DNA of 64,000 nt from Shigella phage Shfl2, in the sequence record HM035025; one strand, written 5' to 3'. Shown one piece after another: positions 31,391 through 33,189 of the stretch (positions within the stretch are counted from its first letter, which is position 1; every line of letters begins with the position of its first letter). The position numbers and the translations under genes were made by a program. The notes under the pieces were generated by a model that saw only the letters and a program-made list of their open reading frames with translations, was not told the origin of the DNA and did not search any database.

Positions 31391-31409
<19 letters not shown>

Positions 31410-31879
31410 TCAGTGATAAAGTTATTTAAATTTTGAGCATATTTCTTTTCATCAAAAATCTTTTGTTGTCTGCGTAACCGCCATGGCATTTCAATGAACA
31501 TGCGCCATATTCCTGATAATACTGCTACTGTAAAAATATTAACAAGTATAGTTAAAAGAACCCAATCTCCTATTCTGTCCATTGGATTTTTTATAAAAAA
31601 GTAAAATACGAACGATGATATAGGAAGACTAATGATATACCACAGAAGAACCTTCTTATCTGTGAACCAATCAGCATTCGTTAACTTAGCGCGACCATTT
31701 TGAATACACACGAATTTATCATCTGTTACAGTAAATGGCTTAGCTGCTTGATATCCCATTCTAAACTCCCTAATTAATCGTTTCTTTGTATCTTCGGAAC
31801 AACCATTCCAGTCAACTCTATCAACTGGAATGCCATCATCCCCATCATCTAAATCGTACCAGCGAGTTTTTAAAATCAT
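31391..31879 (-). CDS. Membrane protein (162 aa) with C-terminal F-I-T-E-C-R-K motif
   Basis: Two TM helices; C-terminal [10 protein letters not shown] shared with the next three genes. Confidence 0.5.
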
Positions 31880-32238
31880 TTAATTTTCCTGCAATCGCTC
31901 ACAAACTCTTTCATTGATTCATTTTCAATATAAGACATGTAGCTATTATATTCTTTTAATTGTATTTTGTAATCTTTTTTTCTTTGCCAATTTATTTTAA
32001 AGTTATCATAATGAAAATATAACATTGTACCAAAGAATGAAAATAATGAAATCGCTATAGTAAAACGAAGTTCACTCCAAACTTCTATTATATTTACTGT
32101 GCCGTCAATGTTTAAAATAAGACAGTCAATTAACAATCCAAAAAGACTACCCGCAAGAGCTGCAGCCAACGCCACAGCAAAAATCAAAAATGACTCAGGA
32201 AGCGAATATTTGACTTTATTTAGTTTTGGCTTTTGCAT
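31876..32238 (-). CDS. Membrane protein (120 aa) with C-terminal F-V-S-D-C-R-K motif
   Basis: TM helices; C-terminal EFVSDCRKIK. Confidence 0.5.
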   Translation of the reverse strand: MQKPKLNKVKYSLPESFLIFAVALAAALAGSLFGLLIDCLILNIDGTVNIIEVWSELRFTIAISLFSFFGTMLYFHYDNFKINWQRKKDYKIQLKEYNSYMSYIENESMKEFVSDCRKIK

Positions 32239-32633
32239 CGTGATTCCTTAACAAATTTCATAATTTCATTAAATTCATACATATCAAGTTTAAGCTGATG
32301 TTCCTTTTTAATCTTTTTACACTGTGCTTTCCAATCACGTACGCGTTTACGATAATGTCTTCCTTGATACCAGTATCCTACCCAATTTACGGGTACTAAT
32401 AAAAGTGGAACTACCAATGGAAGAATTAGCATTAACACAAGTATTTCGCCAGAATCAATATCAGTCATAACATCTAAAACACCTCCAATAATCAATAGAA
32501 TTACAAATGATATAAGTATAACAGGACCTATTAATACATCAGTAGAAATTATCTGACGCTTTAATTCATACTTCAAAGGTTTACTTGGAAGGTATAGTGA
32601 TGGTTTTGACATATTCTCTGCATTCCTTAACAA
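32220..32633 (-). CDS. Membrane protein (137 aa) with C-terminal F-V-K-E-S-R-C-K motif
   Basis: TM helices; C-terminal KFVKESRCKSQN. Confidence 0.5.
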   Translation of the reverse strand: MLRNAENMSKPSLYLPSKPLKYELKRQIISTDVLIGPVILISFVILLIIGGVLDVMTDIDSGEILVLMLILPLVVPLLLVPVNWVGYWYQGRHYRKRVRDWKAQCKKIKKEHQLKLDMYEFNEIMKFVKESRCKSQN

Positions 32634-33189
32634 ATTTTTCTAATAATAAATCGCTTTCAAAATTGGGATTTTCTACGAATTTATCAAAAAGATCATCAAC
32701 AATATTCAAGATATTCCTTTTACTAAGAATACGTTTATTTTCATGCTTCGTTTCAGAGTCAACTATAAGAGTAAAGAAATATTTCTTTCCCTGAAATTTT
32801 ACCGTAGTATCAATATAAAATAAATTTGACTTTTGTAAATTACGTTTAAACCATGCGTCGCTTAAACTATAAACACCGAGATAATCAAAATCGTCGTTTA
32901 AATAACAAACTGACCATTCAGGAGAAACAAAATCAGTAAATTCAACGTCAAAATCACATGTTAATAAATGAATTGATTCAATACTGTTAATAAGTATTCC
33001 AGGACGTATTAAAGACTTTTTACCTCTAGAAAATCTTCCAGAAAGACTTTCATCAGTTTCATATGAAGAACCCCAATAATAATTACGTCCTTCTGCCATA
33101 CGTTTAAGAGCATTTAATAATTGATCTGGAACATCAACCTGTCTTTGGAACTCTTCAAACATTGAATTAAAATCACTTTGCATTTTCAT
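32581..33189 (-). CDS. Hypothetical protein (202 aa) with F-V-K-E-C-R motif near C-terminus
   Basis: EKFVKECREYVK near C-terminus. Confidence 0.5.
   Translation of the reverse strand: MKMQSDFNSMFEEFQRQVDVPDQLLNALKRMAEGRNYYWGSSYETDESLSGRFSRGKKSLIRPGILINSIESIHLLTCDFDVEFTDFVSPEWSVCYLNDDFDYLGVYSLSDAWFKRNLQKSNLFYIDTTVKFQGKKYFFTLIVDSETKHENKRILSKRNILNIVDDLFDKFVENPNFESDLLLEKFVKECREYVKTITIPSK

Follow-up and report, generated by a model that had tools for sequence, protein, structure and literature searches.

A conserved C-terminal peptide shared by the e.2-e.5 proteins of Shigella phage Shfl2 and by proteins encoded next to e.6 in other Straboviridae

The recruitment of scaffold proteins of the PspA/IM30 family by small membrane proteins is well known from bacteria, where PspB and PspC of E. 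coli and LiaI of Bacillus recruit the scaffolds PspA and LiaH, respectively. Short targeting peptides on co-encoded cargo are likewise known from the cargo-loading peptides of encapsulins, the encapsulation peptides of microcompartments and the capsid-targeting peptides of the T4 internal proteins. The present work concerns a short peptide, referred to below as the tag, which is located near the C-termini of four consecutive hypothetical proteins, e.2, e.3, e.4, and e.5, of Shigella phage Shfl2 (sequence record HM035025). These proteins are encoded at positions 31391-33189 of a stretch of 64,000 nucleotides that was analysed as a whole and is referred to here as the window. Like the PspA-PspB/PspC and LiaH-LiaI systems, this locus encodes what are predicted to be small inner-membrane proteins with cytoplasmic tails beside a long helical-hairpin protein, in this case e.6. 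However, it differs from PspB, PspC, and LiaI in that the same tail is also present on soluble proteins and that the number of tagged genes per genome varies from one to six. When e.2-e.4 were compared with the PspB, PspC, and LiaI families, no match in Pfam or NCBIfam rose above noise, and their resemblance to these proteins is one of architecture and neighbourhood only. As in the cargo-targeting peptides, a short terminal peptide is found on unrelated proteins beside a candidate scaffold gene, but the tag differs from them in its sequence, in being C-terminal and in its occurrence on both membrane and soluble proteins, and the scaffold role of e.6 is a candidate role only. Lastly, small size, early expression in a T-even phage and an inner-membrane location are common to e.2-e.4 and to Imm, Sp, and RI of T4, whereas the tag motif is not known from Imm, Sp, or RI. 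An earlier description of this DNA, made from its letters alone and referred to below as the first-pass annotation, had proposed such proteins as candidates for superinfection exclusion. This suggestion has found no support, as none of e.2-e.5 showed a Pfam or PHROG functional match to the Imm/Sp superinfection-exclusion families, and no function could be assigned to any of them from searches of Pfam, PHROGs, NCBIfam, and PADLOC.

The genes of this locus are arranged on the minus strand in the order e.6, e.5, e.4, e.3, e.2, and nudE, followed by the lysozyme gene e (Table 1). In the direction of transcription the tagged genes are located upstream of nudE, and not downstream of it as had been stated in the first-pass annotation. 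The four C-terminal peptides quoted there are all present, that of e.5 in the context KFVKECREYVK and that of e.4 as part of the C-terminus KFVKESRCKSQN, and a common C-terminal motif is indeed found in e.2-e.5. In the form in which this motif was originally given, F-[IV]-x-[ED]-[CS]-R, the positions [ED] and [CS] are not conserved as written, and the core found across phages is F-[IV]-x-x-C-[RK]. The tag is present within the last 35 residues of all four proteins, in its strict form, F[IVL]xxC[RK], in e.2, e.3, and e.5 and in a relaxed form in e.4; the three proteins with the strict form are the only ones among the 108 called genes in the window. When the pattern F[IV].[ED][CS]R was sought in a six-frame translation of the 64 kilobases (kb), six matches were obtained, four of which were the sites in e.2-e.5. 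The other two were discarded, as one of them (7592-7609) is internal to a glutaredoxin-like open reading frame (ORF) and the other (29134-29151) is outside any real ORF.

The significance of the motif was assessed by means of a block score that is calculated from the last 18 residues in any set of four proteins, and which avoids the use of a pattern picked post hoc. The best gapless block of six residues shared by the tails of e.2-e.5 has a score of 136. Quadruples of C-terminal tails drawn at random from the 108 called genes (n = 5000) gave a mean score of 33 and a maximum of 80. For the 100 remaining runs of four neighbouring genes the score did not exceed 81, and the same four tails after shuffling gave a mean of 54 and a maximum of 113. 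The motif is thus significant against a shuffled background. The runner-up score of 81 belongs to a run of genes on the minus strand (21307-22631), in which adjacent genes share [YF]-[LI]-[DE]-x-x-[IV] close to the C-terminus (YLDSVI, FIENVI, YLEMIR, and FLDEII). In this region the genes for proteins of 173 and 185 amino acids (20779-21300 and 21307-21864) are obvious paralogues, and three small helical proteins are encoded at 22032-22631; the motif at the ends of these three is loosely like the tag, without its Cys-Arg.

The tag is also present in orthologues from related phages. Those of the Mosigvirus type, which show 38-53% identity, retain FIMECR in e.5, FVKEIR in e.4, and FIKECR in e.3. 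A Klebsiella phage, reached from a weak tblastn match, shows the same gene order, with e.6, an e.5-like gene ending in FIKHCREAVNG, and, following the latter, one two-helix membrane gene ending in FLKEIRK. The gene e.6 is widely conserved (1105 phage records), and it was taken as the anchor from which the downstream genes were read in Gaprivervirus, Dhakavirus, Kanagawavirus, Moonvirus, Tegunavirus, Karamvirus, Ishigurovirus, Biquartavirus, Tulanevirus, and Pseudotevenvirus. In every genus read in this way F-[IV]-x-x-C-[RK] is present near the C-terminus of the gene after e.6, and often in several genes, and in all 14 of the Straboviridae genera that were sampled by hand the tagged genes directly follow e.6. 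Among 30 proteins from these 14 genera, F and R/K are present in all 30, I/V in 29, and C in 24; position -3 is mostly hydrophobic, position -2 is often E, and the two x positions are variable (E, D, H, Q, K, N, L, or Y). Across these phages the core, as aligned, is h-E-x-F-[IV]-x-x-C-[RK], with S, I, V, or M in the place of Cys in the e.4 lineage.

The conservation of these residues stands out within proteins that are otherwise divergent. Homologues in the e.5 position are found in at least 11 genera, and in an alignment of 13 of these proteins, with identities of 13-47%, the only invariant columns are M1, N98, F186, and C190. Similarly, when e.2, e.3, and e.4 from two genera were aligned, the F and C of the tag were the only invariant columns. 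At these conserved residues synonymous codons are used freely (TTT 18 times and TTC 11 times, TGT 14 times and TGC 9 times, and all six codons for Arg), and the conservation therefore acts upon the peptide. From these comparisons, the motif is seen as an ancient peptide feature under amino-acid selection, and it is very probably both genuine and under selection as a protein sequence. An exhaustive phmmer search with e.5 against 1.84 billion representatives gave close relatives and one spurious repeat protein and did not find the distant homologues, and word-indexed protein searches, with e.3 or with a profile of e.2, e.3, and e.4, gave only matches from Tequatrovirus and Mosigvirus. Literature searches on e.2-e.6 and on PspA/ESCRT-III in T4-like phages found neither the tag nor a link between e.6 and PspA, and two genome-wide T4 screens do not discuss e.2-e.6 in their main text. 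As far as these searches show, the tag has not been described previously, and the existing database entries place T4 e.2-e.5 in four separate families and record neither the shared tag nor the link with e.6.

The linkage of the tag to e.6 was examined in 39 IMG/VR loci that were fetched by means of an e.6 profile, and in which the strict motif was sought in the last 35 residues of the ORFs within approximately 4 kb of e.6 in both directions. In 37 of these loci the strict motif is present in the ORF that comes first after e.6, and in the remaining two this ORF appears to be truncated or fragmented. The numbers of loci with the strict motif at ORF ranks 2 to 7 after e.6 are 9, 15, 5, 3, 7, and 15, respectively. 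In contrast, none of the 333 ORFs upstream of e.6 contains it, and the relaxed form is present in two of them. Within the sequence scanned, these counts indicate that the association of the tag with the neighbourhood of e.6 is exclusive, and its most constant carrier is the gene in the e.5 position. The number of tagged genes per locus ranges from one to six and is most often three, with two or more in 34 of the 39 loci. Altogether 121 distinct tagged proteins were found; one or more transmembrane segments are present in 63 of them and absent from the other 58. The tag is therefore not a feature of small membrane proteins as such, which is how it had been presented in the first-pass annotation, since about half of its carriers are soluble. 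The Cys is present in 95 of the 121 proteins, and in 92 of the 121 the motif ends no more than 10 residues from the C-terminus, the full range of this distance being 1 to 25 residues. The number of membrane genes also varies, from none in some Dhakavirus-type loci to one in the phage dhabil, two in UPEC01 and Mosigvirus, and three in Shfl2.

No Pfam or PDB sequence match was found for e.6 itself, nor any hit to PspA_IM30 at E ≤ 1. A profile made from 33 homologues of e.6 showed a weak collinear match to Vipp1 among PDB sequences (residues 6-143 vs. 6-145; E approximately 0.6-1). In the AlphaFold2 model of this protein (predicted local distance difference test score, pLDDT, 74.5), helices are predicted at residues 2-22, 25-80, 86-145, 151-161, 166-170, and 186-196, which is the layout of the PspA/Vipp1 family, with an N-terminal alpha-0 helix, a long hairpin and shorter helices. 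A Foldseek comparison of this model with the PDB gave Vipp1 structures as all of the top eight matches (E 1.5e-3 to 1.4e-2), followed by CdvB2, with PspA in 50th place. We therefore regard e.6 as a conserved coiled-coil hairpin protein, for which a PspA/Vipp1-like arrangement is suggested but unproven.

The first-pass annotation had described three of the four tagged proteins of the window as membrane proteins, and this holds for e.2, e.3, and e.4. Two clear hydrophobic segments are present in each of e.2 and e.4, and one strong and one weaker segment in e.3, whereas e.5 and e.6 have none. The loops of e.2-e.4 obey the positive-inside rule, and both ends of these proteins, including the tagged tail, should therefore be cytoplasmic. 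In the AlphaFold2 model of e.3 (pLDDT 88), the protein forms a hairpin of two helices (residues 13-42 and 58-119), the second of which is unbroken, and the tag is therefore predicted to be at the tip of a cytoplasmic helix of approximately 40 residues.

A common interaction partner and a duplicated module had both been put forward in the first-pass annotation to account for the shared motif. Each of these has some basis: the conservation of the tag and the selection at the amino-acid level fit a common partner, and e.3, e.4, and e.2 look duplicated (see below). In the interpretation that we favour, the tag is a docking peptide for one common partner, and we place the chance that this is correct at about even. 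The helix containing the tag would dock otherwise unrelated proteins onto this partner, and the membrane proteins would present it at the tip of their cytoplasmic stalk helix. The best candidate for the partner would be e.6, possibly a PspA/Vipp1-like coiled-coil hairpin, although on the basis of gene neighbourhood this identification can be offered only tentatively. The two-helix proteins may then be membrane anchors or nucleators, as are PspB/PspC for PspA and LiaI for LiaH, and e.5 could be a soluble adaptor or a regulator that competes for the same site. The fuller proposal, in which membrane and soluble proteins, in a set that varies and is lineage-specific, would be loaded by the tag onto polymerised e.6 (PspA/Vipp1, ESCRT-III-like), and in which these together would form a module for remodelling or maintenance of the inner membrane throughout the Straboviridae, is speculative and somewhat doubtful.

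A number of observations weigh against this interpretation. The sole link between e.6 and the tag is their conserved adjacency, and as flanks of approximately 4 kb were scanned in the other phages, tagged genes may also be present elsewhere in those genomes. The e.4 lineage is without the Cys, so that this residue is not essential in every member, and the amphipathicity of the tag is modest, the mean z in comparison to shuffled sequences being approximately 1 and the individual p values ranging from 0.03 to 0.4. In addition, the supplement of PMC11879866 gives the CRISPRi-ART guides directed against T4 e.2-e.6 as 'Not Fit', and this result, together with the truncated e.2 of reference T4 that is described below, indicates that any function is dispensable in the laboratory.

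Another explanation is that the tagged tails bind each other and form a C-terminal helix bundle, in which the Cys residues are perhaps bridged by a metal or a disulfide. In such a hetero-oligomer e.5 would be tethered to the membrane proteins without e.6. The hydrophobic residues at positions -3, 0, +1, and +4 are spaced in a heptad-like manner, a Cys is present in 24 of the 30 proteins sampled by hand, the tail of e.3 is a long single helix that is apt for bundling, and the co-encoding of two or more tagged proteins in 34 of the 39 loci is in accordance with such an arrangement. However, there is only one tagged gene in five of the 39 loci, and some Dhakavirus-type loci keep the e.5-position gene alone. 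A hetero-oligomer is therefore not obligatory, while homo-oligomers are possible. The Cys is also absent from the e.4 lineage. We consider bundling of the tails to be rather unlikely.

Recognition of the tag by a factor of the host is distinctly unlikely, whether by a protease or chaperone in a timed turnover, a membrane-targeting or insertion factor, or an enzyme that modifies its Cys-Arg. The exclusive linkage to e.6 (37/39 vs. 0/333) is not predicted by a generic host signal, and the variable distance of the motif from the C-terminus is unlike that of degrons which require a free C-terminus. An ssrA-type degron in particular was rejected, as the motif is not at the extreme C-terminus and is followed by 1-25 residues. 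These points have to be set against the fact that a short peptide has been kept at the C-terminal ends of unrelated early proteins, and that the hosts of the carrier phages span the Enterobacteriaceae and Aeromonas, in which a conserved target could be present.

The duplication within this locus raises the question of whether the tag could be a mere remnant of shared ancestry. In hhalign comparisons an end-to-end alignment of e.3 with e.4 was obtained (P = 5.5e-5, probability 66%), as was one of residues 68-162 of e.2 with the whole of e.3 (P = 5e-4). Cross-genus BLAST searches also gave end-to-end matches between different families, for example between Gaprivervirus e.3 and Mosigvirus e.4 (2.6e-4, in a small database). 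On the strength of these alignments e.2, e.3, and e.4 are probably tandem paralogues. The e.5-type proteins and small soluble proteins of Aeromonas phages match the membrane proteins over their last 12-24 residues only. Changes in the number of genes can also be traced. The Dhakavirus phage dhabil is without the e.4-type gene of Gaprivervirus UPEC01, the alignment blocks of the two overlap in a repeated junction of 22 nucleotides (Table 1), and the dhabil e.5 ends in FIAECREYAKEVQNGTA, which corresponds to the tail of e.5 fused to the last residues of e.4. In phage UFV05, a natural chimera of 106 amino acids (P0118) consists of residues 1-31 of e.4 and the C-terminal part of e.2, joined in register inside the first transmembrane helix, with e.3 deleted. 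In reference T4, e.2 is cut to 102 amino acids (619-927 of L13089, our record L001), and its second helix and tag have been lost. Comparisons of this kind indicate that the number of tagged genes shifts by recombination at the repeated junctions and between paralogues.

That the motif is a functionless residue of this tandem duplication is very improbable. The paralogy of e.3, e.4, and e.2, the alteration of copy number by recombination, and the repetition of the junction DNA, which includes 16 identical nucleotides (AAATTTGTTAAGGAAT) at the e.5/e.4 and e.4/e.3 junctions, would all agree with such an origin. However, the residues of the motif are the sole invariant columns in proteins that are otherwise only 13-20% identical and they survive synonymous changes in their codons, whereas neutral remnants are expected to decay first and not last. 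The motif is also common to e.5-type and small soluble proteins that are otherwise dissimilar to the membrane proteins. A related scheme, in which n genes are accompanied by n + 1 junction repeats and these would account for the motif of e.5, was likewise rejected, as even in phages with a single membrane gene the tag is found on e.5 as well as on the membrane protein, and it is further contradicted by the presence of the tag on many soluble proteins. The repeats are therefore regarded as the substrate for changes in copy number and not as the origin of the motif.

In the window the DNA encoding the tags also serves a second purpose. All four junctions (e.5/e.4, e.4/e.3, e.3/e.2, and e.2/nudE) are overlapping, that of e.3/e.2 by ATGA, and the start ATG of e.4 is located 22 nucleotides past the F codon of the e.5 tag. 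The tag codons AAG GAA of e.4, which specify K-E, constitute a Shine-Dalgarno sequence 5 nucleotides before the ATG of e.3, and this ATG overlaps the R and C codons. In e.3 and e.2, the codons AGG AAA, which specify R-K, form the Shine-Dalgarno sequence 5 nucleotides before the ATG of e.2 and nudE, respectively. K-E encoded by AAGGAA is also found at three other junctions in the window. The initiation region is located inside the upstream gene at 53 of the 106 same-strand junctions, and the motif is present at none of the other 49 of these. A generic initiation signal is therefore insufficient as an explanation. Across genera, the next start is at a distance of 17 to 540 nucleotides from the F codon and a Shine-Dalgarno-like 4-mer is present in just 8 of 29 motifs. 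Moreover, the x-x positions that bear the Shine-Dalgarno sequence are the variable ones, whereas F, I/V, C, and R are kept with free choice of codons. The proposal of dual coding, in which the motif would be no more than the initiation region of the next gene translated in the upstream frame, thus fits the window but is rejected as the main cause by the comparison across genera, and it is highly improbable; the service of the motif codons as Shine-Dalgarno sequences in T4-type phages is local and secondary.

Two further observations concern initiation sites. There are two in-frame ATGs for nudE (MQEIKMKT...; 31394-31409), of which the second is used by T4 and several records and the first by others; the first ATG falls within the Glu-Cys codons of the e.2 tag. 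A small gene on the minus strand (24766-24978) ends in PDFVKEGKPK, where AAAGAAGGTAAA provides the next gene with its ribosome-binding site, and Shine-Dalgarno coding alone suffices to account for the resemblance of this peptide to the first half of the tag.

The DNA of the e.2-e.5 stretch (1799 nucleotides) shows 95.6% identity to T4 (GenBank L13089), and approximately 500 T4-type phages match it at 90-96% identity. By this similarity the window is that of a Tequatrovirus. The gene order and the overlaps of e.2-e.5 are the same as in T4 (msp4-msp8 of L13089), and the four proteins, with identities of 87-100% (96.5% between e.5 and msp4/e.5), are orthologues of T4 e.2-e.5 (msp7 to msp4). The start of e.4 was placed at the ATG at 32612, as fixed by the T4 annotation (msp5, 393 nucleotides). 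The PHROGs of e.2, e.3, e.4, and e.5 (given as 2203, 2330, 2604, and 2607) are four separate ones of unknown function, and the precomputed Pfam assignments are PF26896 for e.2 and PF26873 for e.4. The names 'sulfurtransferase', 'putative phosphoserine phosphatase', 'DNA primase', and 'host specificity protein', which are variously given in public records to e.3, e.4, e.5, and e.6, are without support from hidden Markov model (HMM) libraries. In the CRISPRi-ART supplement, T4 e.2-e.6 are described as conserved hypothetical proteins of unknown essentiality (PMC11879866).

Table 1. Positions of the tagged genes, their tags and associated features. Positions without a prefix are those of the window; the prefix L denotes records used for comparison.
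Feature	Position	Strand	Remarks
e.6	33231-33824	-	197 amino acids; suggested conserved coiled-coil hairpin protein
GC-rich hairpin, UUCG loop	33210-33225	-	between e.6 and e.5; putative stem-loop annotated there in T4
e.5	32581-33189	-	202 amino acids, soluble; first gene after e.6
Tag of e.5, FVKECR	32617-32634	-	codons TTT GTT AAG GAA TGC AGA; 11 residues before stop
e.4	32220-32612	-	130 amino acids; two predicted transmembrane helices, basic cytoplasmic tail; Cys-less tag variant
Tag variant of e.4, FVKESR	32238-32255	-	S at Cys position
e.3	31876-32238	-	120 amino acids; predicted transmembrane hairpin, second helix extends to C-terminus
Tag of e.3, FVSDCR	31888-31905	-	e.3 ends in EFVSDCRKIK
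e.2	31391-31879	-	162 amino acids; 75-residue soluble N-terminal part, two predicted transmembrane helices, tail
Tag of e.2, FITECR	31403-31420	-	near C-terminus of e.2
nudE	30954-31394	-	downstream neighbour of e.2; no tag; ribosome-binding site within e.2 tag region
dhabil breakpoint	L013 4158-4179 vs. L012 4150-4527		repeated Shine-Dalgarno/ATG junction sequence
G-x-W-[VI]-S-S-S-x-x-C paralogues	L003 3731-4525; L011 3778-4827; L012 4864-5437; also L013, L014, L016, L017, L018		

Some other features of these regions may be mentioned. The hairpin between e.6 and e.5 has the sequence GGGGC-UUCG-GCCCC and is not followed by a T run on the coding strand; because of this an element for RNA stability or processing is more likely than a terminator. 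In most genera apart from Tequatrovirus, two to four small paralogues with G-x-W-[VI]-S-S-S-x-x-C at their extreme C-terminus come after the tagged genes, and beyond them another tagged gene is often found; no genes of this kind are present in the 64-kb window. Lastly, three proteins of the window (29190-29663, 29772-30350, and 34617-35183, all on the minus strand) start with MKTY[QKA]EF[IL][TA]EA, which is the capsid-targeting sequence of the T4 internal proteins.

About half of the genes of T4 are without a known function. The tag described here unites four separate orphan families, and approximately 120 distinct proteins of related phages, and ties them to a conserved neighbour, e.6. Four hypothetical proteins are thereby turned into one testable question, namely what the binding target of a 10-residue peptide is. 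The locus also provides a clean example of change in copy number by recombination at junction repeats, and of ribosome-binding sites that are at the same time coding sequence. If the docking partner of the tag is indeed e.6, and if e.6 is PspA/Vipp1-like, the T4-like phages would possess a membrane-scaffold system of their own with exchangeable adaptors, and this would have a bearing on the way in which the inner membrane is managed in the course of infection by these phages.

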